The notes under the pieces are model-generated. The model was not told the origin of the DNA, made no database searches, and saw nothing but the letters and a program-made list of their open reading frames with translations. Positions 1-60,526 of a stretch of DNA of 64,000 nt are shown piece after piece. The position numbers and the translations under genes were made by a program. This DNA is from an uncultured bacterium (GTDB lineage Bacteria > Actinomycetota > Geothermincolia > Geothermincolales > Geothermincolaceae), in assembly GCA_963765625.1 (NCBI GenBank), contig CAVXXD010000012.1, forward strand, positions 207,491-271,490. The letters run 5' to 3'. Numbering within the stretch: position 1 is the stretch's first letter; each line of letters starts with the position of its first letter.

Positions 1-139
1 GATGCGAAGATCCCGCTTTGGTCAGCCATGCATATATTATACATGGTGTAAGATAACTATGGAGAACCTGTCCCCTGACATTGAAGGCGGTCTATCTCTC
101 CATTAACATTGGGGATAACGGATTATGGAGGAGGATCGA

Positions 140-3127
140 ATGATCTCAAAAGAATTCAAGAGGCTGACCCTTATGAGGCTGTCCCTGGCGGTGCTGTGCG
201 TGCTGGTTGCCGCCATCTTGACGGCGGCCTTCCTGCCGGTGACGGCGGGCGCGGAACGGCAGTCCCAGCCGGGGACAGCGGCGCCCAAGACGGCGGAGGA
301 GCACGGCATGGGCTGGAAGCGTACGCCCCCCGGCCAGTACGAGCAGTACGTGATCGACACCACCGACCGGCAGTTCAAGGCATCAGTGGACCTCTCCTCC
401 CAGATGCCCCCGGTGGGCGACCAGGACGGGCTGAGCTCCTGTGTAGCCTGGTCCACCGGTTATTACTACAAGAGCTGGCAGGAGAAGCAGGAGCACACCA
501 CCTGGGACCTCACCCAGGCCGAGTACCAGGCCAGCCCGGCCTTCGTCTACAACCTGGGCAACGGTGGAGATGACGAGGGTATGAACTTCGATGAGGCCTT
601 CGACGTTCTGCAGCGGAAGGGGTCGGTGGACATGGCGGAGTTCCCCTTCGTCGACGGCGACTACACCACCCAACCCACCGCCGCCCAGAAGCAGGCGGCC
701 CTGCCCTACCGTATCGCCGGCAACTGGTCCTACATCTTCTACCAGCCGGACTGGCCGCCCTACAACGACGGGCTGACCAACGACCTCGCGCCCCTCAAGG
801 CCCAGCTCGACTCGGGCGAGCCCTTCGTCATGGGGTTCGACGTCTATGGCGACTTTCCGGATTCCGGTCCGGGCTCTCCCGACGAGAATCCTTACTATGA
901 CTACGACGGCACCTCGGAAAGCACCGGCCTCCACGCCATGTGCGTGGTCGGCTACGACGACAACGCCAACCCCACGGGTGGTGACGACGACCACAAGGGC
1001 GGCTTCCTGGCCGTCAACTCCTGGGGGGCGGACTGGAACGGTGCCAGCGCCGGCTACGTATATTTCAGTTACGACTTCATGAAGCACTACGCCATGGAGG
1101 CCTGGCAGATGGACGACAGCACCACACCGGACACCCCCCATATCAACTCCATCACTCCCGACACCGGCGGCCCCGGCACCAGTGTCCGGATCGACGGCTA
1201 CAACTTCGGCACCGACCGCCGCGCCTCCAAGGTGACCATCAACGGCACCGAAGCCGTGGTCAATTCGTGGACCAACGCGCAGATCACCGTGACCGTGCCC
1301 GACCCCGTCATCAGCGGGCCGCTGGTCGTATATGACTGGGAAGGCAACGCTTCCAATTCCGCGGCCTTCCACGGCGCTCCCGTCCTTACCTCCCTCGACA
1401 AGAGCGAGGGTGTAACCGGCGAGACGGTGACCTTGACCGGCAGCCAGTTCGGCACTTCCCGGGGGACCTCCTATGTCTCCTTCGGCTCCGCCCGGGCCGA
1501 TACCTACACCCAGTGGACGGAGACCACCATAACCTGCGAGGTGCCACCCTCCGCCGGCGGCCTGGTCGATGTGGTCGTGACCACGGCGGGGGGGACCTCC
1601 GGGAGCCTGCCATTTTCGGTCGTTCCAACCCTGGACGCCCTGGGGCCGCCGGAAGGGGCGCCGGGCACCGAGGTGACCCTGTATGGCACGGGGTTTGGTA
1701 TCGAGCGTGGTTCTTCCACCGTGATGTTCGACGGGGTGCCGGCTACCGGCTACAACCTCTGGTCCGAGAACGAGATCAAGTGCCTGGCCCCCGAAACCGA
1801 CCCGGGGACAAGGGCGGTGAGCGTGCATACCACCGGCGGCGAATCCTCCGCCATACCTTTCCTCATGAGCCGGCCCGCCGTCATCTGGTACCTGGCGGAA
1901 GGCTCTACGGACGGCGGCATGGAGACCTGGGTGCTGGTACAGAACCCGCAGGGGGAAACGGTGACGGTGAGCCTCACCCTGATGACCGACACGGGTGAGC
2001 AGTCACCCGCGACCCTGCAGGACGTGGCCATCGCGGGCAATTCCCGCATGACCTTCAACCTCAACTCCTACGTCACCACCTTTAACGTCTCCACCCGGGT
2101 GGAAGCGAGCGACAACGTGGTCTGCGAGCGTGCCATGTACGGCAACAACCGCGCCTGGGCTCACGAGTCCGTCGGCGTTACCGCGACTTCTTCCACCTGG
2201 TTCCTGGCCGAGGGCTGCACGGACGGTGGCATGGAGACCTGGGTGCTGGTGCAGAACCCCAATGTCTTCGACGTCACCGTCACCCTGGAACTGCAGGACG
2301 TGGCCAGCGGGGGGGCGGTCATCGCCGACGTGCTCATCGCCGCAGGCTCCCGCCGCTCCTTCAACCTGGGTGATTCCCTCACCACCTATAGCGTTTCCAC
2401 CATGGTCGCCTCGCGGGGCGGCAACGTGGTCTGCGAGCGGGCCATGTACGGCAACGGCCGGGCCTGGGCCCACGATTCGGCCGGCGCCAGGACGGCCTCC
2501 GACACCTGGTACCTGGCCGAGGGTTGCACCGACGGCGGTTTCGAGACCTGGGTACTGGTGCAGAACCCGGGGACCGTACCGGTGGAAGTGGACCTGGAAC
2601 TCCAGACCGACCAGGGGAGCCAGACGCCGGCCGGCCTGCAGGGCGTGACCATCGCCCCGCGGACCCGGCAGTCCTTCAGCCTCGGGGACTACGTCACCAC
2701 CTACAACGTCTCCACGCGGGTCACCTCCACCGGGGGCGGGGTGGTCTGCGAGCGGGCCATGTACGGCAACGATCGCGCCTGGGCCCACGAGTCGGTGGGG
2801 GCATCCGCTCCCGCCTCGACCTGGCTGATGGCCGAAGGCTGCACGGCCGGCGGCATGGAGACCTGGGTCCTGGTGCAGAACCCCAACGCCGCGGAAGTCA
2901 CGGCTACCTTCACCCTGATGACCGACCAGGGCCCCGTTTATCCACCTGGCCTGACCGGGGTGACCATCGACGGAAACTCGCGCCGCTCTTTCAACCTGGG
3001 GTTCTACGCCGCGACCTACAACGTCAGCACCATGGTGGTCACCACCGGCGGCGACGTGGTCTGCGAGCGGGCCATGTACGGCAACAACCGCACCTGGGCC
3101 CACGACTCCGTGGGTTACGCCCCCTGA
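140..3127 (+). CDS. Secreted multidomain protein: signal peptide, papain-like (C1) cysteine peptidase domain, 4 IPT/TIG domains, then 4 tandem copies of an unnamed ~105-aa repeat
   Basis: ORF 125..3127 (1000 aa). RBS GGAGGAGG lies just before the ATG at 140. Hydrophobic N-terminus. Active-site-like Cys motif GLSSCVAWS and His motif HAMCVVGYDD...AVNSWG. IPT-like ITPDTGGPGT..IDGYNFG repeats. C-terminal repeats read YLAEG.TDGG.ETWVLVQNP...NSR.SFNL...YNVST...VVCERAMYGN.RAWAHDSVG. Confidence 0.8.
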   Translation: MISKEFKRLTLMRLSLAVLCVLVAAILTAAFLPVTAGAERQSQPGTAAPKTAEEHGMGWKRTPPGQYEQYVIDTTDRQFKASVDLSSQMPPVGDQDGLSSCVAWSTGYYYKSWQEKQEHTTWDLTQAEYQASPAFVYNLGNGGDDEGMNFDEAFDVLQRKGSVDMAEFPFVDGDYTTQPTAAQKQAALPYRIAGNWSYIFYQPDWPPYNDGLTNDLAPLKAQLDSGEPFVMGFDVYGDFPDSGPGSPDENPYYDYDGTSESTGLHAMCVVGYDDNANPTGGDDDHKGGFLAVNSWGADWNGASAGYVYFSYDFMKHYAMEAWQMDDSTTPDTPHINSITPDTGGPGTSVRIDGYNFGTDRRASKVTINGTEAVVNSWTNAQITVTVPDPVISGPLVVYDWEGNASNSAAFHGAPVLTSLDKSEGVTGETVTLTGSQFGTSRGTSYVSFGSARADTYTQWTETTITCEVPPSAGGLVDVVVTTAGGTSGSLPFSVVPTLDALGPPEGAPGTEVTLYGTGFGIERGSSTVMFDGVPATGYNLWSENEIKCLAPETDPGTRAVSVHTTGGESSAIPFLMSRPAVIWYLAEGSTDGGMETWVLVQNPQGETVTVSLTLMTDTGEQSPATLQDVAIAGNSRMTFNLNSYVTTFNVSTRVEASDNVVCERAMYGNNRAWAHESVGVTATSSTWFLAEGCTDGGMETWVLVQNPNVFDVTVTLELQDVASGGAVIADVLIAAGSRRSFNLGDSLTTYSVSTMVASRGGNVVCERAMYGNGRAWAHDSAGARTASDTWYLAEGCTDGGFETWVLVQNPGTVPVEVDLELQTDQGSQTPAGLQGVTIAPRTRQSFSLGDYVTTYNVSTRVTSTGGGVVCERAMYGNDRAWAHESVGASAPASTWLMAEGCTAGGMETWVLVQNPNAAEVTATFTLMTDQGPVYPPGLTGVTIDGNSRRSFNLGFYAATYNVSTMVVTTGGDVVCERAMYGNNRTWAHDSVGYAP

Positions 3128-21145: not shown

Positions 21146-22123
21146 ATGAAGCATCCGAAGGTCGTGCTGGTCTTGTTGCTGACCGTCCTCACCGTCCTGG
21201 CGCTGAACGCCGGCGGGTGCGATACCGGGGAGCCGCCGATCTATCGCAACACATCCAGTCCGATTTACGTTGGCTTGAACGACGAGTTCGTCATAGCCCT
21301 CGAGGCCAACCACACCACCGGTTACTCCTGGCAGCTGACCGAAGAGGTCGATGAGAACATCCTGTCGCTTGAAGGCGTCGAGTATGAGGCCGGCGATTCC
21401 GAGCTGGTCGGTGCGCCCGGCGAGGAGGAGTGGACTTTCAAGGCCGTGGGAGAAGGCCGGACCGAGTTGACGTTCAAGTATGTTCGCCCGTGGGAGACCG
21501 AAGAGGCCGAGGGCGAAGAGGCTGAGGCCGGCAGGCGCACATCCGGGACCGAGACCGTCACCGAGACTCATGCCACTACCACTGAGACCACTACCACTGA
21601 GACCACCACCACCGGGACCGAAGCCGCCACTGCTTCTGAAGAAGAGGCAGCAGCATCGGAAGAGACGATGACCTACACGATTGACGTAGGCCCCTCCGGG
21701 TCGGCCGCCGATAAGGCCACCGAATACAAGTACGAAGACGGCAAGATAATGGAAGACGAGAAGGAAGTCCCGGAAGCGGAGGTCGAGCTGGGTGCCCAGT
21801 TCGCCCTGGTCGTGCCGTCCAACCCCACCACCGGTTACGTGTGGCGCCTGGCCGAGCCCCTCGACGGGAGCCTGCTCATACTGGTGAGCATGGGGTCCGA
21901 GAAGCTCAAGGAGGAAGGCGAGAAAAAAGAGGGCGAGGAGGAAATGGTCGGCGTAGGTTACGACGAGATCTGGACCTTCCGCGCCATCGGCTCGCATGGG
22001 GACGAGGCCACCGAGACCGAGATCACCCTGGAGAAGGTACGGCCGTGGGAAGAGGATACCGCCCCCGTCGATTCGGTGACTCTGACTGTCAAGATAACCA
22101 AGCCCGAGGAGGAGAAGAAATAG
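21146..22123 (+). CDS. Lipoprotein with two tandem chagasin-family (MEROPS I42) cysteine-protease inhibitor domains separated by an acidic Thr/Glu linker
   Basis: Lipobox LNAGGC. Two copies of the chagasin L2 signature NPTTGYxW (ANHTTGYSWQL and SNPTTGYVWRL). Each is followed by the conserved W..KA.G and RPWE motifs. Confidence 0.75.
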   Translation: MKHPKVVLVLLLTVLTVLALNAGGCDTGEPPIYRNTSSPIYVGLNDEFVIALEANHTTGYSWQLTEEVDENILSLEGVEYEAGDSELVGAPGEEEWTFKAVGEGRTELTFKYVRPWETEEAEGEEAEAGRRTSGTETVTETHATTTETTTTETTTTGTEAATASEEEAAASEETMTYTIDVGPSGSAADKATEYKYEDGKIMEDEKEVPEAEVELGAQFALVVPSNPTTGYVWRLAEPLDGSLLILVSMGSEKLKEEGEKKEGEEEMVGVGYDEIWTFRAIGSHGDEATETEITLEKVRPWEEDTAPVDSVTLTVKITKPEEEKK

Positions 22124-22228: not shown

Positions 22229-23137
22229 ATGAGAGACCTCAAGTCCAGGACGTTGCTGGTCGTTTTCCTTGCCATGTTGCTGCTGGTGGCGCTGGTAGGA
22301 TTCGCGGGTTGCGGCAACAAGAGCACCGGTACCACCACCAGTGGGGAAGAGCAGGAGGAAGAAGAAGCGACCCCCGAAGACGTCGTGGTGAAGTTCTTCC
22401 GCGCCGTGGAGAAGCAGGACGCCAAGGCGCTGGCGGGGCTGTTCGACCCCGACTCCCTGGACGAGATAAAGGATGCCCTGGGCAGTGAATACAGGTCCCT
22501 GATCGGCGACTATTTTTTTGCGGACATGCCCGAGGACGTCAAGTTCAAGAGCCTCAAGTTCGACACCGACATTGAAGGCAAGGAAGCGGTGGTCGATCTC
22601 ATGAAGGGCAAGGTCGTCTACACCGACGAGTACGGGGACGAGGCCACCGAAGACCTCATGGATTCGGACGACCCGGTCACTTTCTACCTGGTCAAGGTAA
22701 AGGGCGAATGGTACATATCCATCGACACCTTCCCTGATCTGATCGCCGAATACGATATCCCCGACACCGCCCCCACCGACACCACCCCTGACCCCAACCC
22801 CAACCCCAACCCTGACCCTAACCCTCAGCCTACGGCGGAGTACGTAACCTGCCCGGATTGCGCCGGGTGGGGAGGCTGGGAAGTGGGCGCCGACACCACC
22901 TGCTACTACTGCAACGGCTCGGGTGTGCAGGACGTGCAGTACTATTGTGATGTCTGCGGCGGCAACGGTTACTACTACACCGAGAACGGGTCTTTCGAAT
23001 GCGAATACTGCGGCGGCACCGGCCTGATCTGGGACTGGGCCCCATGCGAATACTGCGGTGGTTCCGGCCTGGTCAGCGAGACCAGCTGGGCGGTCTGCGA
23101 GACCTGCGAAGGGACCGGCTGGATCCTGCAATACTGA
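22229..23137 (+). CDS. Lipoprotein: N-terminal NTF2-like/DUF4878-like domain, PNPNPDPNP linker, C-terminal DnaJ-type zinc-finger domain with six CxxCxGxG repeats
   Basis: Lipobox VGFAGCG. Six repeats: CPDCAGWG, CYYCNGSG, CDVCGGNG, CEYCGGTG, CEYCGGSG, CETCEGTG. Confidence 0.65.
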   Translation: MRDLKSRTLLVVFLAMLLLVALVGFAGCGNKSTGTTTSGEEQEEEEATPEDVVVKFFRAVEKQDAKALAGLFDPDSLDEIKDALGSEYRSLIGDYFFADMPEDVKFKSLKFDTDIEGKEAVVDLMKGKVVYTDEYGDEATEDLMDSDDPVTFYLVKVKGEWYISIDTFPDLIAEYDIPDTAPTDTTPDPNPNPNPDPNPQPTAEYVTCPDCAGWGGWEVGADTTCYYCNGSGVQDVQYYCDVCGGNGYYYTENGSFECEYCGGTGLIWDWAPCEYCGGSGLVSETSWAVCETCEGTGWILQY

Positions 23138-24748: not shown

Positions 24749-27153
24749 TCAGGGCGTGAAGCCTATCGAGTCATGTGCCCAGGTGCGGGCGGTATCGTAC
24801 ATGGCCCGCTCGCAGATGACCCCTCCGCCGTTGGAGGTGACCATGGTGGAGACGTTGTAGTCGGTGACGTAGTCGTTGGCTTGAAGGTGACGCGGGAGTT
24901 GGCGGGGATGGAGACATTCTGCAAGTCAGTTGGGGTCTGGACCCCTGCCCCGGTCATCAGCGTAAGGTCCACGGTGACCGCCGCGGCGTTGGGGTTCTGT
25001 ACCAGCACCCAGGTCTCGAAGTCGCCGGCGGTCGCCCCCTCGGCCAGGTACCAGGCGTAGGCCATGCTGGTCGCCCCGATGGAGTCGTGAGCCCAGGTCC
25101 TGCCGTTGCCGTACACGGCCCGCTCGCAGATGACCGGCATGTTCGCCGTGACCATGGTGGAGACGTTGTAGTCGGTGACGGAGTCGTTGGCCTTGAACGT
25201 CTTCCTGGAATTGGCCGGGATGGACACATTCTGCGGCCCGGGCACGGCCCCCGCCCCGGTCATGAAGTCGACGTCGACGGTGACCGCCATGGCGTTGGGG
25301 TTCTGAACCAGTATGTAGGTCTCGAAGTCGCCCGCCGTAGCGCCCTCGGCCAGGTACCAGCCGTAGGCCGGGTCGGTCACCCCGATGGAGTCGTGGGCCC
25401 AGGTGCGGGCGGTGTCGTACATGGCCCGCTCGCAGATGACCGGCATATCCGCCGTGACCATGGTGGAGACGTTGTAGTCGGTGACGGAGTCGTTGGCCTT
25501 GAACGTCTTCCTGGAATTGGCCGGGATGGACACGTCCTGCGGCCCGGGCACGGCCCCCGCCCCGGTCATGAAGTCGACATCGACGGTGACCGCCGTGGCG
25601 TTGGGATTCTGCACCAGCACCCAGGTCTCGAAGTCGCCGGCGGTGGCCCCTTCGGCCAGGTACCAGGTATCGGCCGGGTCGGTCACCCCGATGGAGTCGT
25701 GGGCCCAGGTCCTGCCGTTGCCGTACATAGCCCGCTCGCAGATGACCCCTCCGCCGGTGGGGGTGACCATGGTGGAGACGTTGTAGTCGGTGACGTACTC
25801 GTTGGCCTTGAAGGTGACGCGCGAATTGGCGGGGATGGAAGCCCCCTGCGGTCCGGCCTTCAAGCCGGCCGAGGTCATGAAGTCGACGTCGACGGTGACC
25901 GCCGTGGCATTGGGGTTCTGCACCAGTATGTAGGTCTCGAAGTCGCCGGCGGTCGCACCCTCGGCCAGGTACCAGGTGGGGGCGACGTAAGTCCGCCACA
26001 CGCCGCAGCCCTCCACGGTGGTATCACTGTAGCCTGTGCCGGCCCAGAGATAGCCCTCAAAGACGGCCATGGAGTGGATGGCCAGGTTGTCGTCCAGGTC
26101 GCCGAAGCCGTTGACGTTTCGCTGGTCCCAGGCGGTGCCGCTCCACGACCACACCTCGCAGCCGGTGTCGTCGTCGCTGAGGCCGCAGTAGAGTTCTCCC
26201 CCGTAGATGAGCATATTGCGCACGGCGTCCGGGGGGTCAACCAAAGCCATCCAGGGCGGGGTGAGATCGGTCCAGGAGGTGCCGCCGTCATACTTATAGA
26301 TGGTGCCGCCGTTGCTTGAGTTTCCGATTCCCATGTAGAGTTCGTTATTGTAGACGGCCAGGCTGCGGGCGTCTTCGTTGTTCACGTTGCCGAGACCGGC
26401 GTCAGCCACCTTGGTCCAGTCAGTTGGGTCCGGGCCGTCATGACACCATACCTGGCAGCCGGTGTCACTGTTATAGACTCCCGCGTAGAGCTGGTCTTCA
26501 AAGACCACCATTGCCCGGACTCCCCAGTTATCGATGTCCCCGAACGCGTCGGTATTGGCTTGGGCCCAGTCGGTGCCGTCGTAAGCCCAGACCTCCGCCC
26601 CGGTGACGTCGTTGCCTGCCCCTACCCAGAGCAGGCCGTTGAAGTCGAGCATATACGCAGCCGTGTCGGTGTTGACGTCCCCGAAGCCGTCGGTGTTGGC
26701 CTGGGCCCAATCGGTGCCGTCGTAAGCCCAGACCTCCGCCCCTGTGATGGAATTCATCGTACTCACATAAAGCAGGCCCTTGTAAACGGCCATATGATAA
26801 GCGATGCGGTTGTTGACGTCCCCGAAACCGTCGTCATTGACCTGGACCCAGTCTGCCGGGTCCGGACCGTCGTACCGCCAGACCTGGCAGCCAAGGACAT
26901 TATTGAACGTCCCGGCGTAGAGCTTGCCGTTGTATCCGGCCATTGAGAAGGTGCTTCTGTTGTCGGTGGGGACCGTGATGCCGAAGCCCGGTTCGTTCAC
27001 TTCCTCCCAGGTCAACGGCGCCGCCAGCGCCGCGCCCGTCAGGACGAACGCCGGCAGCAGCAGCGCGGCTGTCAGCAACAGGGCCGCCGCGCCTTTCAAG
27101 AGTCTTTTCCCCATACCTCTCACTCCTTTCATGCTTGCTTTACCTGACGACAC
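24749..27153 (-). CDS. Secreted protein: signal peptide, ~8 beta-propeller-like ~46-aa repeats, then 4 copies of the ~105-aa repeat; frameshift in the last repeat (~24865)
   Basis: Propeller repeats read LY.G..N..TGAEVWAYDGTDWAQANTDGFGD.N. Four copies of the module WYLAEGATAGDFETWVLVQNPNA...ANSR.TFKAND.VTDYNVSTMV....VICERAMY...RTWAHDSIG. After a 1-nt correction at ttcaag|gccaac the last repeat completes to stop 24749..24751. Confidence 0.75.
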
Positions 27154-42565: not shown

Positions 42566-45384
42566 ATGCGTAAAACGAAGAAGAAAATCATAGTACCGGC
42601 GCTCGGGCTCGCTCTGTTGATCGTCGCGTCCGTCTTCCTGCCTGCCGGGGCAGCCACCACCTCGGTACCGGAAGGGGACGCCATGTCGCAGGAGTTCGTC
42701 CTGTGCGAGACCGACGCCTCCGGCGTGATCGAGAAGGTAAGGGTATTCAACATACTGAGCGTCGCCGAACAGGCGGGTGCCGGTAACTTCGACTTTAAAA
42801 TGACCAACGAGTTCGCCGGGGAGGATGCCAGCGTCTACGGTACCAGCAGCTTCAAGAAGCCCGAGCTGGACGGCGACTACATCATCTGGAGGGACGTCAG
42901 CGCCGAGGAGAACGCCAACTTAGTCTCGGACACCAGGTTCAGCAAGTCTATGGTGGAGGAGGCTAAAACCCGCATACCCCTCGACGTCGAGTACAAGTAT
43001 TACCTGGACGACAAGCTGGTCAGCGGACCCAAGGACATCGAGGGCAAAAACGGCCACTTCCGCCTCGAGTGCACCATGAAGAACACCAGCAAGGAGAAGA
43101 CGCCGGTCAAGTACAAGGACCCCGAAACCGGCGAGACGGTCGTGGTCAACACCGACGTCTATCTGCCCCTGGTGATCTCACCGTACATGTGGCAATGGGA
43201 CAACCAGCACTTCTTCAACATGGAGACCGACCAGTACTGCCTCAACATCTACAAGCCGGACTGTTACCAGACCGGCTGGACCATCCCGCTCTTCCCGCCG
43301 GCGACGGACGAGAAGCTCACCATCTGGGTGGAGGCGGACGTCAAGGACTTCCGCATGCCGGCCCTGACGCTGGTCTGCGCCTTCGTCTTCCCGGAGACCA
43401 ACCAGAACGACGCGCTGGAGCAGCTGGGGCCGGGTATCGCCCAGCTCTACGACGGGGTCAAGCAGCTCGACGGCGGCCTGAACGAAGCAGTGGCCGGCCT
43501 GGGCAGCGCCACCACCCCGGACACCCTCATCTACGGCATCAGCCAGATCTACGACGGCCTGCTCACCCTCTCCAGCAACGAAGGCCTGGCCAAAGCCAAG
43601 TCGGCCATAGATGATGTGATGATCCCGGGCGTCGAAGAGGCGGCTGCCGGCATTGACAACAAGATGATCCCGGGCGTCGACCAGGCGGTCGCGGGCATCG
43701 GCAGCGCCACCACCCCGGACACCCTGCTCTATGCGGCCAGCGCGACCCAGATCGGCTTGGAGCAGATGTCGGCCGGCATCGGAACCACCACCACCGACGG
43801 CACCCTGCTCTACGGGGTCGACGCGGTGTCCGGAGGCCTCAACCAGGCCGTGGCCGGCATCGGCAACCCCACCACCGGCGGCACCCTGCGCTACGGTGTC
43901 GACCAGGTGTTCGCGGGCTGAGTGATGCCGTGGCCGGCATCGGCAGCGCTTCCACACCGGGTACCCTGCTCTACGCCGTGAACGCGGTGCAGGGTGGGTT
44001 GAATGGCCTCTATGGAGGGCTGGGCCAGGTGATGCTGGGCCTGTCCAATGCCTCGCCCACGGGAGGTATCCTGGAAGGGTTGACCGCCATGAAGGCTGCT
44101 CTCGACGCGCCTTACCCCAACGGAGTCGTCGCCGGCCTGCAGGCCATGGCAGCAGGCTTAGGCCCTGCGTCCACGGCGGGCACGCTGCTCAACCAGGTCA
44201 ACCAGCTGATCGCCATGTTCTCCGCCGACAACTTCGCCGCTACGTCGCCCCCTGATCCTACGGGAGCCACCATGTACGCCTACGTCAACCACAACGCGGC
44301 TTACGGCGGGGCCATGAACCCGCAGGACATCGCCGTACTGAACGGCATGATGTCGGGAATCGCGGGCCAGTTGAACGCTGCGCTGCCCAACCTAAACCTG
44401 ATGTACAACAGCCTGGTCGCCCCTTATCCCAACGGGATTATCGCCGGCCTGCAGGCCATGTCCACAGGCATGGGGCAGATGATCACGGGCATCGGCAGCG
44501 CCTCTACGCCGGGCACCCTGCTCGGCGGGCTGGCCGCCATGCAGGCGGGCATCGGCAGCGCCTCTACGCCCAACAGCCTGCTCTATGCCATGGCCCAGAT
44601 GCAGTTCGGTCTGACAGCGATGCAGGCCGGCTTCGGCAGCGCTTCCACTCCCGACACTGCCCTCTACGGGCTGGACCAGGTCGAGGGCGGGCTGGCGCAG
44701 ATGCAGGCCGGCTTCGGCAGCGCCTCCACCCCGGACACTGCCCTCTACGGCCTGGCCCAGATCCAGTTCGGCCTGGCCCAGATGCAGGGCGGCATAGGCA
44801 GCACGACGGCCCAGGACACCCTGCTCTACGCCATCGCCGCCATGAGCGGGGGCATGACCCAGATCAGGTATGGACTTTCCTCCGGGTCGGCCGCCGAGCC
44901 GGGCCTCAAAGAAGGCCTGGTCCAGCTATCCGGAGGCATGTACGAGCTATCCGGAGGCCTGGACCAACTTTCCGGCGGGCTGGATGAAGCCATCACCGGG
45001 CTGGGCAGCTCTTCCACCCCGGACACCGCGCTCTACGGCGTCAACCTGGTCAAGGAGGGCATGGTCACCCTGCAGGAGGGCCTGACCCAGGCCACCGCTG
45101 AGGGCACCCAGGTGATGCTCACCGGCCTGGACGGCAGCCTTACCACCATCAACCTGACCCAGGGTGAGCTGGAAGCCATCGAGGAGCGTGCCGCCGAGTT
45201 CAGCTCCTTCCTGGGCGCGCCGGTGAGCGGCGAGAGCGAAGTGCGCTTTGTCATGCAGACCCCGCCCACCTACGGCTACTCTGACAACAGCGGCACCAGC
45301 GGTCTCGTCGCATTGATACTATCCTTAGTGATCGCCATCGCGCTGGTACTGCTGGGCATCTTCGCCTTCCGCAAACTGGCTTGA
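42566..45384 (+). CDS. Large double-anchored surface protein with ~30 degenerate ~25-aa Gly/Ala repeats; frameshift near 43920
   Basis: N-terminal TM/signal and a ~280-aa globular domain. Repeats (A.AGIGSASTPDTLLYG.......GL.Q) span two consecutive ORFs, 42566..43921 and 43930..45384. C-terminal TM LVALILSLVIAIALVLLGIFAF. Confidence 0.6.
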
Positions 45385-50404: not shown

Positions 50405-53400
50405 ATGGACGTCTTCAAACACCCGGCCCGGCTGCTGGAAGCGGTCCACTGGTCCAGTGTGGGGGTGATCGCTTTTCTTCCCCTGTACCAGGGGGCGGAC
50501 ATCTCCATCCTGCTCTGGGCGATCATCATGGCATCCCTGGTACTCGTCGGGGCCGCGCTCTTCTTCTATCTCAAGAAGAAAAAGAAGCTCCCCCAGCTCG
50601 GTTACCCGGTCCTGCTCATCCTGGACTCGGCCCTGGTTTCGCTGCTCATCTACAACAGCGGCGGGCTGTCCAGCCCCCTCTACCCCATGCTGATCTTCTT
50701 CGTCATGCTCAACTCGCTGGCGCGGCGCTGGAACCTGGCCCTCGTCGGGACGTTCACCATCGCCTCCTTCTACCTGGCCGCGTGCCTGCTGGAGAACTCG
50801 AGTTCTCTGGGTTACGTCCTGATCGTGAGGGTGGGGGTGATGGTCGTTTCCGCCCTGGTGCTGACCTGGATGATGATCCTGGACACCGAGGCGCACGGGC
50901 GCGGCGCCCGCATGCAGACCCTCTACGAGATCAGCACCTCGCTCTCCCGCTCCCTCGACCTCGAGCTTACCCTGGCCAACATCCTGGAGTCCACGGATCG
51001 GGTGTTCAAGACGGACATCAGCTCCATCCGCCTGATGAACCTCAATGCCAACACCCTGGTGGTCAAGGTCTCCGGCGACCCCGAACACGACCCGGAGGAG
51101 GCGGTGGAGATCGAGCTGGGCGAGGGTTTCATCGGGTGGGTGGCCAAGGAGGGCCGGCCCATCATCGTCAACGACGTCCCCCACGACCCCATGTTCGCCA
51201 TCTTCCCCAAGGCCAAAAAAAAGGTAGCCTCGGTACTGGCCGCCCCCATCTACCTGGGCGACACCGTGGTGGGCGTGCTTTCCTGCGCCAGCTCCAAGCC
51301 GGTCGAGTTCACCGATGACGACCTGCAACTCCTGGTTACCATCTCCAACCTGGCCGCCACGGCCATCGAGCGGGCCGAGTTGTTCGAACGCATCAGTACC
51401 CGCGGCGAGGTCATCGTGGAGAATATCAACTCCAGCATCATCGTCACCGATCCCGAAGGGGGCATCTCCCTCATCAACCAGGCGGCCCTGGACCTGCTGG
51501 ACCTGGAGGAGGACGTCAGGGGCGCCAATGTCCTGGGTCTGCTCGAAGGGAGGATCCGCAATTTCGATATCTTCTGGAAACGGATCGAGGAGGAGTTCGC
51601 GGTCCTGGAAAAAGAAGAGGGCGCCCCGGAAGAAGGCATGAGGGCCGGCCTCTCTCAGGAACTCCGCACCATCGGGCCCAACGAGAGATACCTGCTGGTC
51701 AAGTCCTCGCCCATCCGCGCCAGTTACGACGCCCTTTCCGGCTTCGTCTTCATCCTGGACGACATCACCGAACGGGTCAAGGTGGACGAGATCCGCAACG
51801 AGCTGATGCTGATGATCGCCCGGCGCGTCGAGGAGTTCAGCGCCCTCTACGAGATGGGTTACTCACTGGCCGGCATGAGCGACACCCAGTACATGCTGGA
51901 CCTGCTCATCCGGCGGGCCGTGGAATTGCTGGACGCAAGCTCCGGCGCCCTGGCCCTCTACGACCAGGACCAGGACGTCTTCGTCTACAAGGCGGCGGCG
52001 GGGATGAGGGACGAACTTCCAGGCATCACTTTCAAGGCGGGGGAAGGGCCCTCCGGCGAGGTGGTGGAGCGCCGGGAGTCGCTCCTCCTGGAGAGGTCGG
52101 TGCCGGAAGGGTCGGCCCTGCTGGCCGAGGAGGTCCCCAACGAGATCACCGCGCTGCTGAGCCCCATCGTCTGGAGGGACCGCTCTACCGGCATCTTCGA
52201 GATATACCGGGACGCCGAAGAGCGCCCCTTTTCCGGGGACGACCTCTCGCTGCTGGCCCTCTTCACCAGCCAGACGGCTATCGCTCTCGAAAACGTCAAC
52301 CTCTACCAGATCATGTCGGAGGACAAGACCAGGATGGAGTCCATCCTCCTGTCGGTGGCCGACGGCGTGGTGGCCCTGAACAACGACGCCCAGGTGATCC
52401 TGGTCAACTCGGAGGCGGAAAAGATCCTCAACCTTCCACCCTTCCAGGATATACAGGGGAGCCACGTCAAGGAGGTCATCCGCAACCCGGACATCGCCAA
52501 CCTTCTTTTAAAGAGCCTCTACACCCAGGACGAGCTGGCCCTGGAGATAACCCAGAGCATTCCCCGCAAGCTGATCATGGAGGTGCAGACCTCGGTCATC
52601 GACGACGAGAAAAAGGAGCGGCGGGGCGTGGTGGCGGTGCTGCGGGACATCACCCGCATGCGCGAGCTGGAGCAGGCCAAGTCGGACTTCGTCTCCACCG
52701 TCTCCCACGAGCTGCGCACTCCCCTCACCTCCATTAAAGCCTACACCGCCACCCTGCTGCGGGAGGACGTGACCTTCGACACCTCCACCCAGAGGGAATT
52801 TCTCAGTATTATTGAGGAGGAAGCCGACCGCCTGACCCGCCTCATCGCCGACTTGCTGGACGTGTCCCGCATCGAATCCGGCAAGTTCGAGCTGAAGACG
52901 CGGGAGTTCGACTTCATCAAGCTGATCAACATAGTCCTGGACAAGTTGATGTCGCAGACGGACATCCACGAGGTGGACGTGATCACTCCTGGCAGCCTGA
53001 CCCCGCTGATGGCGGACCCCGACAAGATCGAGCAGGTGCTTATGAATCTGCTCGGCAACGCCGTGAAGTACTCGCCGCGTGGCGGCCGCATCGAGGTGGA
53101 GGTCAAGGAGTATTCCAACAAGATCGAATGTTCCGTCAAGGATTCGGGGGTGGGCATCCCCAAGGAATACCTGGTAAGGGTGTTCGAGAAGTTCAGCCGG
53201 GTGGACAACCGCGCCACCCGGGGCATCGGCGGTACCGGACTGGGGCTCTACATCACCAGGAGTATCGTAGAGGCGCACGGCGGGACCATCTGGGTGGAGA
53301 GCAGCCCCTCCAAAGGGAGCAAGTTCCATTTCACCCTGCCCCTGGACTCCACCTTGAAGAAGAGCCTGCCCAACCCGGACGGTACTTCGCGTGGTCAAAA

Positions 53401-53419
53401 TCGGGACAAGGGCATATAA
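50405..53419 (+). CDS. Multi-sensor histidine kinase: N-terminal polytopic membrane domain, GAF/PAS sensor domains, HisKA and HATPase_c
   Basis: 1004 aa. ~6 TM helices, then three GAF/PAS-like segments, H-box VSHELRTPLTSI, and N/G boxes in the C-terminus. Confidence 0.8.
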   Translation: MDVFKHPARLLEAVHWSSVGVIAFLPLYQGADISILLWAIIMASLVLVGAALFFYLKKKKKLPQLGYPVLLILDSALVSLLIYNSGGLSSPLYPMLIFFVMLNSLARRWNLALVGTFTIASFYLAACLLENSSSLGYVLIVRVGVMVVSALVLTWMMILDTEAHGRGARMQTLYEISTSLSRSLDLELTLANILESTDRVFKTDISSIRLMNLNANTLVVKVSGDPEHDPEEAVEIELGEGFIGWVAKEGRPIIVNDVPHDPMFAIFPKAKKKVASVLAAPIYLGDTVVGVLSCASSKPVEFTDDDLQLLVTISNLAATAIERAELFERISTRGEVIVENINSSIIVTDPEGGISLINQAALDLLDLEEDVRGANVLGLLEGRIRNFDIFWKRIEEEFAVLEKEEGAPEEGMRAGLSQELRTIGPNERYLLVKSSPIRASYDALSGFVFILDDITERVKVDEIRNELMLMIARRVEEFSALYEMGYSLAGMSDTQYMLDLLIRRAVELLDASSGALALYDQDQDVFVYKAAAGMRDELPGITFKAGEGPSGEVVERRESLLLERSVPEGSALLAEEVPNEITALLSPIVWRDRSTGIFEIYRDAEERPFSGDDLSLLALFTSQTAIALENVNLYQIMSEDKTRMESILLSVADGVVALNNDAQVILVNSEAEKILNLPPFQDIQGSHVKEVIRNPDIANLLLKSLYTQDELALEITQSIPRKLIMEVQTSVIDDEKKERRGVVAVLRDITRMRELEQAKSDFVSTVSHELRTPLTSIKAYTATLLREDVTFDTSTQREFLSIIEEEADRLTRLIADLLDVSRIESGKFELKTREFDFIKLINIVLDKLMSQTDIHEVDVITPGSLTPLMADPDKIEQVLMNLLGNAVKYSPRGGRIEVEVKEYSNKIECSVKDSGVGIPKEYLVRVFEKFSRVDNRATRGIGGTGLGLYITRSIVEAHGGTIWVESSPSKGSKFHFTLPLDSTLKKSLPNPDGTSRGQNRDKGI

Positions 53420-53458
53420 TTATTTTGACATCCCATAAATATTCAGGGAGGGCAAGGC

Positions 53459-54403
53459 TTGGAGGTTAGCGAGAGGGCCATCAAGATTCTTCTGGTCGAC
53501 GACGAGCGCAACATCCTGGACATCGTCCAGTTCAACCTGGAGGTTGAAGGCTTCGAGGTGACGACCGCGTCCGACGGCATGGAAGCCCTGCGCGTGGTGC
53601 ACGACGCCGCCCCCGACCTCATCCTCTGCGACATCATGATGCCGGAGGTGGACGGTCTCGAGGTCTGCCGCCGCCTCAAGGCGGACAGCCGCACCAACCA
53701 GATTCCCATCGTCATGCTCTCGGCCAAAGCGCAGTCCCAGGACAAGCTGGATTCCATCGCGGCGGGGGCGGACGACTTCGTCACCAAGCCCTTCGACTTC
53801 AACGATCTGGTGGCGCGGATCAAGGTCAACCTCATCCGGGCCAAGCAGAAGAAGGACGTCAGCCCGCTCACCGGTTTCCCCGGCTCCATCTCCATCGAGG
53901 CGGAGATCAAAACTCGCGTCAAGCGTGCCGAGGCCTTCGCCACTCTCTACGTGGACATGGACAACTTCAAGCCCTTTAACGAGGTCTACGGCTTCCCCCA
54001 GGGGGACAAGGCCATCAAGATGCTGGCCGACATCATCGACGACGCCGTGCGCAAGGCGGGGAACATGGAGGACTTCGTGGGCCACGGCGGCGGGGACGAT
54101 TTCATGATCATCTCCACCCCGGACCGGGCCAAGGCCATCGCCATCTTTCTCATCGAGAACTTCGACCGTCGGGTGACCGCCCTCTACCGCGAGGAGGACC
54201 TCCAGCGGGGCTACTTCATCCGCGTCGACCGGGCGGCCAAGGAGAGCTACATTCCCATCACCACCATCAGCATCGGCATAGCCAGCAACGAGCACCGGAG
54301 GATCACCACCCATTGGGAAGTGGGCGAGATCGCCAAGGAAACGTTGAACTACGCCAAATCCATACCGGGAAGCACTTTCTTTATGGACAGGAGGGTCAAG
54401 TAA
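53459..54403 (+). CDS. Response regulator receiver fused to a GGDEF-type domain with degenerate GGDDF motif
   Basis: TTG start after RBS GGGAGGG. REC domain (LLVDDE...DLILCDIMMP...D, K). GGDEF fold with LTGFPG, DMDNFKPFNE and GHGGGDDF. Confidence 0.7.
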   Translation: MEVSERAIKILLVDDERNILDIVQFNLEVEGFEVTTASDGMEALRVVHDAAPDLILCDIMMPEVDGLEVCRRLKADSRTNQIPIVMLSAKAQSQDKLDSIAAGADDFVTKPFDFNDLVARIKVNLIRAKQKKDVSPLTGFPGSISIEAEIKTRVKRAEAFATLYVDMDNFKPFNEVYGFPQGDKAIKMLADIIDDAVRKAGNMEDFVGHGGGDDFMIISTPDRAKAIAIFLIENFDRRVTALYREEDLQRGYFIRVDRAAKESYIPITTISIGIASNEHRRITTHWEVGEIAKETLNYAKSIPGSTFFMDRRVK

Positions 54404-54445
54404 CCGGGGAGATGGAAGGGTTTGCAGGAGGACCAAAGGGGAGAT

Positions 54446-55219
54446 ATGGAAGAGAAATATAAAGTGCTGGTGGTTGAGGACGACGAATCCATCTCCAACG
54501 TGGTGGAGTTGAACCTGCGCCTGGACGGCTACGAAGTGTTCCTGGCCGCCGACGGGGAGGAGGGGCTGGCCAGGGTGGAGGAAGTCGAGCCCGACCTGGT
54601 CATCCTGGACGTGATGATGCCCAAGGTGGATGGCTGGGAGGTGCTCATGCGCCTGCGCCAGCAGCCGGAGACCAAGGATATCCCGGTGATCATGCTCACT
54701 GCCATCGGCGACGAGCAGTCCAAGGTGATGGGCCTGCGGGGCGGCGCCGACGACTACGTTGCCAAGCCCTTCAGCCCACTGGAGCTGACCGCCCGGGTCA
54801 AGGTCATCCTGGACCGCGTGGGCAAGGCCCAGCGGATGGCGGAGCGCGTGGCGGAGCAGGGGGAGGCCGGCGAAGCCCCCATCAAGCTGGAGCAGATCCC
54901 CGTGCAGAAGGGCGACACCATCATCCTCGTCCCCAAGGAAGACATCTACTTCATCGACACCAAGTACGAGTACGCCAACATCCATACTTACTCCGATTCC
55001 TACCTCACCACCTACAGCCTGACCGAACTGGAGAAGTCACTCGACCGCAACATGTTCTTCCGGACCCACCGCAGCTTCATCGTCAACTTGCGCAAGGTCA
55101 AGGAGATCATCAAGATATCCCGCAACAGCCTCATCGTGGCCCTGACCGACGAAAAGGCCAGCCGGGTGCCGGTCAGCCGGCGGCAGGCCACCCTCTTAAA
55201 GGACGCCCTGGGCATCTAG
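54446..55219 (+). CDS. LytR/AlgR-family response regulator (REC + LytTR DNA-binding domain)
   Basis: REC domain, then the LytTR signature ...FFRTHRSFIVNL..V. Confidence 0.75.
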   Translation: MEEKYKVLVVEDDESISNVVELNLRLDGYEVFLAADGEEGLARVEEVEPDLVILDVMMPKVDGWEVLMRLRQQPETKDIPVIMLTAIGDEQSKVMGLRGGADDYVAKPFSPLELTARVKVILDRVGKAQRMAERVAEQGEAGEAPIKLEQIPVQKGDTIILVPKEDIYFIDTKYEYANIHTYSDSYLTTYSLTELEKSLDRNMFFRTHRSFIVNLRKVKEIIKISRNSLIVALTDEKASRVPVSRRQATLLKDALGI

Positions 55220-55827: not shown

Positions 55828-58331
55828 ATGCGAAAGTTCCTAGTGTTAATGACAGTGGCGGCGTTATGTGCCGCACCGGGATTGGGCCTCTTCGGCGCCG
55901 CGGCTTCCCCCCGGCTAGCGCCGGATTCCAGGCGGACGCCCTGTCCGCGGCATCACCGAACTACCGGGTCTTCAGTGAGACCGACCTGAAGTCCATCAAG
56001 AAGATAACCCACAATCTCGATGCCAGCATCACCGAAGGACTGGCGGGCGGTCATTACACCTGTCAGAAGAATTCCGACCCCTTCACCTATTTCGAGCAGG
56101 ACTGGAAGGGAGTAGACCTCTCCTACCTGCTGAACCAGGAAGTGGGCATCAAAACAGGCACCACCGGTATCAAGATCATTGCCGCCGACGGATACGCGGT
56201 GACCCTGACCCTTGCGGACATCGAGGGTTACAATGGGCTGCCGGCCCTGCTCGGCTACCTGCGCGGTGACTCCAGTGACAACAATCCTCCCAACGAAGAA
56301 GGAACCATGGATGGAACCGGGACCTTCCCCTCCGTGGACCCGGTTGATACGAACGTCGAGATCGACGCGGAAGAAGGCCCCTTCCGGCTGGTCCTTCCCC
56401 AGAGCACCATCGGCCCGGATCCCCGCGACGTCGCCTACAGTCCGGTGGGAAGTGGTACCGCCAACTGGAACAAGGCGGTCATGCAGGTGCGCGCCGTCGA
56501 GGTACAGCCGGTATCCCCGGGCATCCCGGCCATCGATTACGAGGCCATTCCCAGCAACCAGGTTGTCGTTTACGGCAACATCGAGAACCGCCATACCTTC
56601 ACCGTCGACCAGCTCAAATCGATCAACCCCGTCAGTGGCACGTATACCTTCAGGAAGTCCTTCGGTGACCCGCCCGAATACAGCGAGGAGAATCACGAAT
56701 GTGCAGGGGTCACTCTGTCCTACCTGCTGGACGATGTCCTCGGGCTGCAGGACGCGGCTGAAAACGTAACGACCATATGCTCGGACGGCTATGGTGTCGG
56801 AAAGGTCATCTCCCTGGAAGACATGAGGCAGGTCGGCTTGAACGGCATGCAGTTCATGCTCTGCCTGAACCTGGACGGGGCGGACCTGGGTCCCGAGCCT
56901 GATGACAAAGGCCCAGTTTACCTGGTCAAGCCGCTGATGACCGATGACCCCCTCGAGACCAACAGTAGCAAATGGATGAAGAACATCAGGTCGATCGTGG
57001 TGAACACCTCATCCGACCCGGGGCCCGATTGGGCCAGGATCCCAACTGACCGCGTCATCGTCAGCGGCCTCTCCAACGCGGGCAACATCCCCAACGAGTG
57101 GTTCCTGCCCGAGGGGTGCACCGGCTTCGGCTTCGAGGAATGGATCCTCATCGAGAACCCCAACCCCTGGCCCACCGACGTCATCGTCGATTACATGATC
57201 GAGGGTGAGGCCATGCAGACCAGGACTTACGACGACGTTGCGGCCGAATCGCGCTTCTCCATCAATGTGGCAGCCGAGATTGGCACGGACAAGAACGTCA
57301 GCGCCAGGGTGGAAGGTTACCACGGCGACTCCATCGTCGTGGAGCGCGCCATGTACTGGGGCGACCGCGACGGCGGTCATTGCTCCGGCGGCATCCAGCG
57401 GGCTCTCAACACCTGGTACTTGGCCGAGGGGTGCACAGCCGATATCTTCGAGACCTGGGTGCTGGTTCAGAACCCGGGCGACACCGACGTCATCGTGGAC
57501 TTCACTCTTATGACTGAAGCCGGTGAGCAGAATCCTGAGGGCCTGCAGGACCAGACCATAGCCGCTAATTCTCGCCGCACCTTCAACCTGGGAGACTTCG
57601 TCCAGTCATATGACGTCTCCACCAGGGTTGTCGCCTCCGGTGACGTCATCGTGGAACGTGCCGTTTACTGGAACGACCGCGACGGCGGCCACTGCGCCGG
57701 CGGCGTTGCCGGCCCCGGTAACGAATGGTATCTGGCCGAGGGGTGTACTAATTCTCCCTTTGAGACCTGGGTGCTGGTGCAGAACCCGACCGCGGCTGCC
57801 GTCAACATCGACATGGACCTGATCACCGACACCGGCGTGGTGCAGGGCCCGCAGGAAGCTATCGCCCCCAACTCGCGCAAGTCCTATAACCTGGTCGACT
57901 ACACCGCGAGTTATGACGTGTCGACAAGGGTCACGGCGGACGGTAGCGGGATCATCGCCGAGCGCGCCGTCTATTGGAACGACCGCGACGGCGGCTCCTG
58001 CGAGAGCGCCAGCGACCACGGCAAATTCAAGGCCTACCTGGCCGAGGGCGCCACGGCCGGCGGCTTCGAGACCTGGGTGCTCTTCCAGAACCCCGGGGCC
58101 GTCGATGCCACCATCAATGTGACCTATCTCACCGATTCCGGCGTGGTCGTCAAGGAACCCTTCGTAGTGGCCGCCGGGACGCGTAAATCAGTCAACGTCA
58201 TCGAAGACGTCGGAGAAAAATACGATGTCTCCACCGTCGTCACGGCCAGCGCGCCGGTGGTGGTGGAGCGTGCCGTCTACTGGGCCGAGCGCATCGAGGG
58301 AAGCTGCGCCAAGGGGCTTTCCGCCTGGTAG
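55828..58331 (+). CDS. Secreted protein with two sulfite-oxidase-fold (molybdopterin-oxidoreductase-like) domains followed by 5 copies of the ~105-aa repeat; frameshift in the signal-peptide region (~55905, C5 run)
   Basis: Signal peptide MRKFLVLMTVAALCAAPGLGLFGAAAS is in ORF 55774.. and the body in ORF 55866..58331. SUOX-like blocks GGHYTCQKNSDPFTYFEQDWKGVDLSYLL ... DGY.V.L.L and FRLVLPQ. Repeats carry WYLAEGCT..FETWVLVQNP ... VVERAVYWNDRDGG. Confidence 0.65.
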
Positions 58332-59984: not shown

Positions 59985-60515
59985 GCCTGCGCGGGTGGCT
60001 TACGGCCACGGCCCTGGTCTGCCTTATCGCCGGTTGTGCCTTCGCCGGGGCCGGCTGCGGGGATGAGCAGCAGCCGTCACGCTTCTTGAAGAGCGAGGAA
60101 CGCCTGGAAGGGATGTACGAAGCCTGCAAGACTATCGCCATCAGCGACCCGGCGGGAGAGCGCCCTCCCATCCTCGCGGACGAGCTGGCGGGGTATCCCC
60201 GCGTCGATGTGACCACGGAACTGGTGCGGTCCAACGGCATGCGCCTGCCGGGCACCTGGAGCGGCGCGTCGATCTCGGAGGTCCTGGCGAAGCACGGTGT
60301 GGAAGGACCCTTCACCGAGCTGCGCATCGTTGCCTGGGACGAATACGTGGCCAAGGTACCCTTACGACATCGCCATGCGCCCCGACACCATTCTCGCCTA
60401 CGAGCAGGAAGGAGAACCCCTCCCGCGGGAGGACGGCCCGGTGCGGCTGGTGGTGGGGAGCGAGGACGGCTTCTTCTGGATCCGCATGATCGTCCGGCTG
60501 GAAGTGGTGCGTTGA
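59981..60515 (+). CDS. Lipoprotein with a single sulfite-oxidase-fold domain, frameshift near 60360
   Basis: Lipobox LIAGCAF. RLPGTWSGASISEVLAKHGV is in ORF 59981.., then ILAYEQEGEPLPREDGPVRLVVGSEDGFFWIRMIVRLEV in ORF 60297..60515. Confidence 0.55.
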
Positions 60516-60526
60516 AGCGCCTGTCC

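Follow-up and report, generated by a model that had tools for sequence, protein, structure and literature searches.

The window analyzed here, a stretch of 64,000 nucleotides on contig CAVXXD010000012.1 of an uncultured actinobacterium (family Geothermincolaceae), contains three genes whose products end in tandem repeats of about 103 amino acids (aa). The repeats were assigned to the ASRT/TM1070-like (ASRAH) domain superfamily, and the array of four consecutive copies is referred to as the ASRAH tetrad. The repeat borders were determined by a regular-expression scan and by a hidden Markov model (HMM) built from the copies themselves, which resulted in units of 100–105 aa and E-values of 1e-40 to 1e-53 per copy. 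The original prediction, made from the sequence alone, had already placed the repeats at the ends of these three open reading frames (ORFs), and its invariant blocks WYLAEG.T..FETWVLVQNP, NSR, VST.V, and ERA.Y are present. Instead of the 13 copies counted there, the HMM detected 12 (4 + 4 + 4); the third protein, to which five copies had been ascribed, contains four, also when the filters were switched off. A six-frame scan revealed no further copy in the 64-kb window. The features of the three genes are as follows.

First protein, 125..3127, plus strand: 1000 aa with a signal/anchor sequence, a papain-like C1 peptidase, three IPT/TIG domains, and the ASRAH tetrad (ORF and Pfam)
First protein, alternative start: ATG at 140, used in the original prediction
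First protein, Peptidase_C1 domain, 398..1087, plus strand: aa 92–321, with catalytic Cys, His, and Asn motifs
First protein, three IPT/TIG domains, 1127..1885, plus strand: about aa 335–587 (Pfam, E 1e-37, three stretches)
First protein, ASRAH repeat 1, 1886..2197, plus strand (HMM E 5.6e-51)
First protein, ASRAH repeat 2, 2198..2506, plus strand (HMM E 5.3e-47)
First protein, ASRAH repeat 3, 2507..2821, plus strand: the repeat that was modelled singly
First protein, ASRAH repeat 4, 2822..3124, plus strand (HMM E 3.8e-50): the protein terminates with it
Second protein, 24749..27153, minus strand: about 801 aa after repair, with a signal peptide, a propeller-like head of 6–7 blades, and the ASRAH tetrad
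Second protein, ASRAH repeat 1, 25666..25974, minus strand (HMM E 1.2e-51)
Second protein, ASRAH repeat 2, 25360..25665, minus strand (HMM E 9.8e-52)
Second protein, ASRAH repeat 3, 25054..25359, minus strand (HMM E 8.8e-51)
Second protein, ASRAH repeat 4, 24752..25053, minus strand: in two reading frames, HMM positions 1–59 and then 57–100 (six-frame scan)
Third protein, 55828..58331, plus strand: about 834 aa after repair, with a signal peptide, two SUOX/Oxidored_molyb-like domains, and the ASRAH tetrad
Third protein, ASRAH repeat 1, 57099..57413, plus strand (HMM E 1.4e-42)
Third protein, ASRAH repeat 2, 57414..57725, plus strand (HMM E 8.9e-51)
Third protein, ASRAH repeat 3, 57726..58031, plus strand (HMM E 6.3e-47)
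Third protein, ASRAH repeat 4, 58032..58328, plus strand (HMM E 2.2e-40): starts with AYLAEG, not WYLAEG

All three proteins possess a hydrophobic N-terminal signal sequence, in accordance with the proposed secretion. With 800–1000 aa, they are not the giant proteins they had been called. Pfam searches and the reading of motifs yielded the same three heads as described before. The first protein scored 24.4 bits against Peptidase_C1 (cut-off 20.7) with the motifs SSCVAWS, GLHAMCVVGY, and NSWG visible, and the three IPT/TIG domains that follow the peptidase matched the TIG family with 128 bits. The head of the second protein comprises six or seven blades of the W-x-YDG type and reached the cut-off of no Pfam family, and that of the third is Oxidored_molyb-like (26.5 bits, cut-off 24). 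NCBIfam lacks a model of the repeat, and its matches were confined to the TIG region and the heads.

The gene ends 24749 and 55828 given in the original prediction are correct, provided that one frameshift is repaired in each of the two genes. Unrepaired, the second protein is encoded by an ORF of 796 aa (27153..24763, minus strand) and the third by a main ORF of 821 aa (55866..58331, plus strand). In the second gene, a comparison of the DNA with that of repeat 3 revealed the loss of one G (AAGGCC to AAGCC) at about position 24880 within repeat 4, which resumes in another frame (…ANDYVTDYNVSTMVTSNGGGVICERAMYDTARTWAHDSIGFTP) up to the stop codon ending at 24749. In the third, the ORF starting at 55828 encodes the signal peptide (MRKFLVLMTVAALCAAPG; also given as MRKFLVLMTVAALCAAPGLGLFGAAA) and lies in a different frame from the main ORF; the likely site of the shift is a run of six C at 55907–55912, where the signal-peptide ORF joins the main frame. 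Both frameshifts could reflect the error pattern of long reads or assembly, or recent pseudogenization. Similar single-base homopolymer errors may be present in other genes of the window.

In the 11 intact copies of the window, 16 columns of the repeat are invariant (E5, G6, T8, E13, L17, N20, P21, R54, V68, S69, V72, E82, R83, A84, Y86, and R90). Residue frequencies across the family were calculated from 716 repeats, in which about twelve residues are near-invariant, charged ones among them. The Trp of strand 1 (W1), preceded in the linker by T, S, E, K, G, or A, was found in 92% and the Asn ending strand 2 (N20 of VQNP) in 99% of these repeats. Within the segment FETWVLVQN, Glu13 and Leu17 occur in 83% and 89%, respectively. 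Cys is present at column 7 in 42% and at column 81 in 34% of the repeats, and conserved disulfides are unlikely at such low frequencies. Among the copies in the window, the first repeat of the third protein is the most divergent (36% identical to the third repeat of the first protein, which served as reference).

The two subtypes of the repeat described in the original prediction (YGN.R.WAHDS and YWNDRDGGHC) are real and extend through the whole family. Columns 87 and 92 are occupied by G and W in 270 repeats and by W and one of G, A, E, or D in about 250, whereas W at both columns was never found. The subtype is mostly uniform within a protein (60 all-G and 46 all-W), and only 13 out of 179 proteins mix G and W. 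As exemplified by repeat 3 of the first protein (window 2765–2782), the subtypes amount to one Trp exchanged between two positions of the tail hairpin. The sub-functionalization that had been suggested is not demonstrated by this exchange, which, judged from the alignment, looks like a compensated structural alternative within the hairpin.

Repeats of the same protein are more similar to each other (57% identity) than to those of other proteins (44%), which holds for 96% of the proteins. Apart from the truncated tail of repeat 4, no column distinguishes the four repeat positions. Anciently distinct positions were considered as an explanation and rejected, since the best match in another protein is spread almost equally over all four. 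The lack of positional orthology, together with the higher identity within proteins, indicates that the four units evolve in concert and occupy equivalent environments.

The repeat had been regarded as unnamed and not assignable to any family. However, it matches the Pfam family DUF5719 (PF18986) and belongs to the ASRT/TM1070 (ASRAH) fold superfamily. The first, second, and third protein scored 67.7, 61.1, and 49.4 bits against PF18986, respectively (cut-off 26.2), and single repeats gave borderline scores of 30.8, 21.9, and 23.2 bits at model positions ~56–143 of 319. The window proteins matched only positions ~42–239 of the 319 in the model; since two consecutive repeats span ~47–239, the model holds two such units plus extensions. 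PF18986 was also passed by all 55 representative homologues, and nearly all of 522 homologues obtained in a word-indexed search carried a precomputed match to it. Several of the homologues are labelled "DUF5719 family protein" by NCBI and stem from metagenome-assembled genomes (MAGs) of Candidatus Geothermincolia, Anoxymicrobiaceae, or Actinomycetota. In Pfam, DUF5719 ranks among the families of unknown function; a match to a well-characterized family with a defined function, for example an Ig-like or carbohydrate-binding one, was not obtained. Matches of the repeats to RbmA-like_FnIII, Agarase_CBM, and DUF7356 were weak, partial, and overlapping, and were treated as beta-sandwich noise.

At the sequence level, a connection to ASRT is suggested by three homologues (P0089, P0101, and P0103) that are 36–43% identical to the window tetrad and pass the ASRT family PF07100 (34.5, 30.9, and 26.7 bits, cut-off 25). 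The window proteins themselves gave no match to PF07100 at E ≤ 1. The top match of P0089 among PDB sequences was ASRT, a weak hit whose register is aligned on the conserved Asn, and a phmmer search of the PDB sequences with P0103 returned no match. The repeat profile matched PDB sequences only at chance level (an MS2 coat construct, E 0.11; an F420 reductase, E 1.7), with 1nc7 and 2ii7 unmatched. Since the PDB sequence search remained at chance level, the link to TM1070 and ASRT required structure comparison combined with bridging through Pfam. The repeat displays the eight-stranded beta-sandwich of TM1070/ASRT topology, and the assignment to the ASRT-like ASRAH fold is solid.

The ASRAH superfamily was defined from ASRT and TM1070 and divided into three families by De Souza, Iyer, and Aravind (2009, Biol Direct 4:25; PMC2739507). 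Its hallmarks are a Trp that follows a polar residue and opens strand 1, and a near-invariant Asn closing strand 2 (PMC2739507). This Trp/Asn pair is present in 11 of the 12 copies of the window; in repeat 4 of the third protein, the Trp is replaced by Ala. The first family consists of cytoplasmic stand-alone proteins that form tetramers. The second comprises secreted proteins of Chloroflexi (Roseiflexus, Chloroflexus, and Herpetosiphon), in which four tandem domains are combined with an N-acetylmuramoyl-L-alanine amidase. The third comprises actinobacterial lipoproteins with a domain dyad and unique extensions, whose genes adjoin those of a WhiB protein, a glycosyltransferase, and an inactive zincin (PMC2739507). 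We take the third family to be the one later entered in Pfam as DUF5719. TM1070 and ASRT are tetrameric, and the cleft of TM1070, partly walled by the dimer interface, holds a diol contacted by His25 and Cys29. For the extracellular members it was proposed that the dyads or tetrads could build tetramer-like bodies and that the ligands are sugars, namely peptidoglycan in the case of the amidase fusions (PMC2739507). In our literature search, the term "DUF5719" appeared in no paper and "ASRAH" only in this study of 2009; the titles and abstracts on Geothermincolia contained nothing on surface proteins.

Like the second ASRAH family, the window proteins are secreted, contain four tandem ASRAH domains, and display the identical Trp/Asn signature. 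For both, binding of glycan or peptidoglycan is predicted and the repeats are thought to form a hetero-tetrameric body, and a close homologue of the window proteins (P0116) carries an Amidase_3 fusion. According to its published description, on which this comparison is based, the second family is always fused to an amidase and found mainly in photosynthetic Chloroflexi, whereas the three window proteins lack an amidase domain and the tetrad of the window type follows dozens of unrelated heads or stands alone. With the classical DUF5719 proteins the window proteins share secretion and the phylum Actinomycetota. However, the former have two domains instead of four repeats, N- and C-terminal extensions (model positions 1–46 and 240–319, unmatched by the window proteins), and a lipobox Cys, whereas the signal peptides of the window proteins lack a canonical lipobox. 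The neighborhood of WhiB, glycosyltransferase, and inactive zincin genes was not seen in the window either, where the tetrad genes are flanked by genes for an FAD oxidoreductase, an MFS transporter, an SDR protein, an acyltransferase, an Oxidored_molyb-like protein, and a PBP-like protein. The window repeats are thus ASRAH members that pass the DUF5719 model, yet the proteins are not classical DUF5719 lipoproteins. TM1070 and ASRT have the Trp and the Asn in common with the repeats, and both solved proteins are homotetramers, which a chain of four repeats could plausibly imitate. In contrast to the window proteins, they are cytoplasmic, consist of a single domain, and have no signal peptide. 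Their strand 2 (SHEshChhN) contains the ligand-contacting His and Cys where the window repeats (FETWVLVQN) have Glu and Leu, and the window proteins stay below the cut-off of PF07100.

An AlphaFold2 (AF2) model of the tetrad of the first protein (window 1886–3124, 413 residues) reached a predicted local distance difference test score (pLDDT) of 96.6 and a predicted template modelling score (pTM) of 0.93. The high pTM denotes a confident geometry between the domains, so that the tetrad was modelled as one rigid body and not as beads on a string. The C-terminal tail, which was disordered in the model of a single repeat (pLDDT below 50), was modelled with confidence as a strand in the tetrad, an ordering to which the greater depth of the alignment may have contributed. 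In the register given by the conserved Asn, the ligand-contacting His25 and Cys29 of TM1070 correspond to Glu13 and Leu17. These two residues, along with E5, R54, E82, R83, and Y86, are candidates for a conserved ligand site or for salt bridges at the interfaces.

The size of the family was estimated by searching 1.84 billion cluster representatives (clusters of 50% identity) with the profile and without filters; 7,040 proteins passed E ≤ 1e-3, and 2,722 passed E ≤ 1e-30. In the 133 best cluster representatives, the number of copies was four in 116 cases, eight in five, seven in two, six in one, and three in nine. The tetrad is located at the extreme C-terminus in 111 of these proteins and is internal or N-terminal in 17. 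The view of the repeat as a common C-terminal module beneath unrelated heads is thereby borne out. The heads were surveyed in 55 representatives, which matched 56 Pfam families altogether, including subtilases (S8), C39-like peptidases, IPT/TIG domains, RCC1 and other propellers, and metallophosphoesterases/5′-nucleotidases, as well as BNR, FG-GAP, beta-helix, and Vgb-lyase-like domains. The 25 commonest head families include neither a glycoside hydrolase nor a polysaccharide lyase. The heads, among them S8 and C39-like proteases, nucleotidases, propellers, and TIG domains, are of the kind usual for exoenzymes of the cell surface. Fusions to peptidoglycan hydrolases were detected in P0021 and P0078 (M23) and in P0116 (Amidase_3), and in these the repeats precede the enzyme. 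In 31 proteins of the sample the tetrad stands alone behind a signal peptide, 25 of them with a clear Sec signal. An 11,008-bp contig of JGI sample 3300075153 encodes five to six stand-alone tetrad paralogues (~457–471 aa) in tandem on the same strand; the gene of a B12-binding radical SAM protein lies in the middle of this array.

A scan of one genome per species confirmed 514 stretches. The 77 best loci were examined, and almost all of them belong to Geothermincolia-type MAGs (Ca. Solincola, Ca. Geothermincola, and Anoxymicrobiaceae). Within these 77 loci, three such MAGs contribute at least 13, at least 10, and at least 8, and the window contains three in 64 kb. The tetrad family is heavily expanded in the genomes of Geothermincolia-type Actinomycetota. 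It represents a new architectural variant of a known domain, a promiscuous and mostly C-terminal tetrad massively expanded in one actinobacterial class.

We consider it probable that the ASRAH tetrad is a single-chain counterpart of the ASRT/TM1070 tetramer, which binds a glycan of the cell envelope and holds exoproteins at the cell surface. Each repeat forms the eight-stranded ASRT/TM1070 sandwich, with DUF5719 as the Pfam model of the extracellular branch. Four tandem copies would pack as one rigid body, as the TM1070/ASRT homotetramer does with separate chains, and offer four clefts, all equivalent, where the domains meet. Once exported via Sec, the tetrad would bind a carbohydrate polymer belonging to the envelope of the same cell, either peptidoglycan or a wall-associated glycan, and the fused heads (in the window a papain-like protease, a propeller, and a pair of SUOX-like domains) would be retained at the surface. 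The single-chain tetramer is suggested by the copy number of four or a multiple of four, the equivalence of the repeat positions, which is the pattern expected of subunits in a symmetric ring, the pTM of 0.93, and the ordering of the tail. The ASRT tetramer itself is said to have been described with a planar C4 geometry by Vogeley et al. in 2007 (J Mol Biol 367:741). Export by Sec, the peptidoglycan hydrolase fusions, the lack of polysaccharide-degrading heads, and a nearly uniform module under many unrelated heads per genome argue best for a ligand in the cell's own envelope.

The SLH, LysM, and other wall-binding modules of Gram-positive bacteria likewise occur as repeats at one end of many unrelated secreted enzymes. 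SLH-type modules also have small fixed copy numbers (three SLH motifs form one pseudo-trimeric body) and fusions to peptidoglycan hydrolases. In fold and sequence they are unrelated to the ASRAH tetrad, and the likeness is one of functional analogues only. A role like that of SLH or LysM in envelope anchoring, as guessed in the original prediction, is the best-supported reading of the data, and it agrees with the prediction made for the amidase tetrads (PMC2739507).

Several points weigh against an envelope-binding, ring-shaped tetrad. The ring geometry is suggested by the pTM, the copy number, and analogy with the solved tetramers, and the number four is not absolute, since a few genuine three-copy arrays exist (P0162, P0185, and P0226), while some three-copy cases are truncated or frameshifted. 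The near-invariant charged residues E5, R54, E82, and R83 could form interface salt bridges instead of ligand contacts. Peptidoglycan hydrolases are a small minority of the heads, and the many stand-alone tetrads imply that the block has a function of its own beyond the tethering of cargo. A scan of viral contigs, in which phage endolysins with the tetrad as a wall-binding domain would have spoken for wall binding, detected no relative; a Foldseek search of BFVD returned only meaningless matches (TM ≤ 0.27). The literature search gave no experiment on any extracellular ASRAH or DUF5719 protein, and the activities reported for ASRT in the passages of two papers that deal with it are rhodopsin binding and DNA looping, not sugar binding (PMC2739507; PMC8660804).

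A more far-reaching proposal would make the tetrad the general surface-display system of Geothermincolia and their relatives, a single-chain, pseudo-four-fold ring that either docks on a lineage-specific wall glycan or forms a surface lattice with secreted tetrad-only proteins and fills, in this lineage, the place held elsewhere by SLH, LysM, or sortase anchoring, with the Trp-swap subtypes as two assembly or ligand classes that do not mix. We regard this generalization as doubtful. The tetrads might instead be the building blocks of a self-assembling surface lattice or scaffold, in which tetrad-only proteins tile in the manner of an S-layer or sheath and the enzymes co-assemble through protein contacts. 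The frequent stand-alone proteins, the tandem paralogues on one contig, and the rigid modelled body with four equivalent units would suit such a lattice, and the uniformity of subtype within a tetrad would fit a constraint on interface compatibility. However, concerted evolution explains this uniformity equally well, the M23 and Amidase_3 fusions suit wall targeting better, the solved relatives are closed tetramers, and nothing was seen that indicates a higher-order assembly; a lattice is therefore rather improbable. A similarly low probability is assigned to a carbohydrate-binding module or lectin that recognizes a glycan of the environment or of foreign cells and brings the enzyme heads to their substrate. 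The sugar binding predicted for the superfamily (PMC2739507) would be compatible with this function, but the commonest heads are proteases, nucleotidases, and propellers where glycoside hydrolases or polysaccharide lyases would be expected, and the near-uniform sequence of hundreds of paralogues with unrelated heads fits a single common ligand better.

An inert spacer or stalk without any binding role, as in many Ig-like, FN3, and TIG arrays, is already disfavored and very improbable: tandem beta-sandwich domains are found in secreted proteins and IPT/TIG spacers adjoin the repeats of the first protein, but the copy number is fixed at four or eight, the placement is terminal rather than between domains, about a dozen residues, some of them charged, are nearly invariant, tetrad-only proteins occur, and the model is compact and rigid. 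Least of all do we expect a C-terminal sorting or secretion signal, analogous to the C-terminal domain of the type IX secretion system or to PEP-CTERM/PGF-CTERM and perhaps removed by the export or attachment machinery, since, despite the predominance of the extreme C-terminal position and the end of the protein within a few residues of repeat 4, about 410 aa far exceed the size of known sorting tags, a terminal transmembrane helix or sortase-type motif is absent, the repeats precede the enzyme in the M23 and amidase fusions, 17 of the 133 representatives carry the block internally or at the N-terminus, and the proteins already carry Sec signal peptides.

Several further genes of the window are of note. 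The I42 proteins of the chagasin family inhibit papain-like C1 peptidases. A lipoprotein-like protein with a signal peptide ending in NAGGC (21146..22123, plus strand) contains two such I42 domains (PF09394, 138.5 bits), connected by an acidic, Thr-rich linker. Since I42 proteins target C1 peptidases and both genes lie in the window, this protein and the C1 peptidase-tetrad protein (125..3127) may be a protease/inhibitor pair of the cell surface. Another lipoprotein-like protein (22229..23137, plus strand) combines an acidic N-terminus, a linker rich in Pro, Asn, and Asp, and a C-terminal DnaJ-type CXXCXGXG zinc-finger region (34.5 bits), for which the extracytoplasmic location is an unusual context. 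Two adjoining ORFs of 451 and 484 aa (42566..45384, plus strand), the first with a signal peptide, had no Pfam match at E ≤ 0.01. Upstream of the gene of the third protein, a GAF/PAS histidine kinase and two response regulators are encoded (50405..55219). Directly downstream (58479..59984, plus strand) follows the gene of a membrane protein of 501 aa with two Oxidored_molyb-like domains (73.6 bits) and no tetrad, and then that of a PBP_like_2 solute-binding lipoprotein (59981..61363, plus strand; 118.5 bits). The third protein may be one of a small cluster of SUOX-like proteins located outside the cytoplasm.

The fold of the domain and its Pfam family were known before, and the binding of sugar or peptidoglycan was predicted in 2009. 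Added here are the size of the family, the fixed copy number, the diversity of the heads, the expansion in one lineage, the model of a rigid tetrad, and the concerted evolution of the repeats. The present practical value is modest, as the fold and family were known and the function is a prediction. The tetrad does offer a compact, rigid module of about 45 kDa on which the glycan recognition predicted in 2009 can be studied. If it is a common envelope-binding block, its sequence would provide a simple handle by which all surface proteins of an uncultured class of actinobacteria could be listed. The large Pfam family DUF5719 would, if this is true, also gain a biochemical function, and its classical members sit in a conserved cell-wall locus with WhiB and glycosyltransferase genes in actinomycetes, pathogens included.

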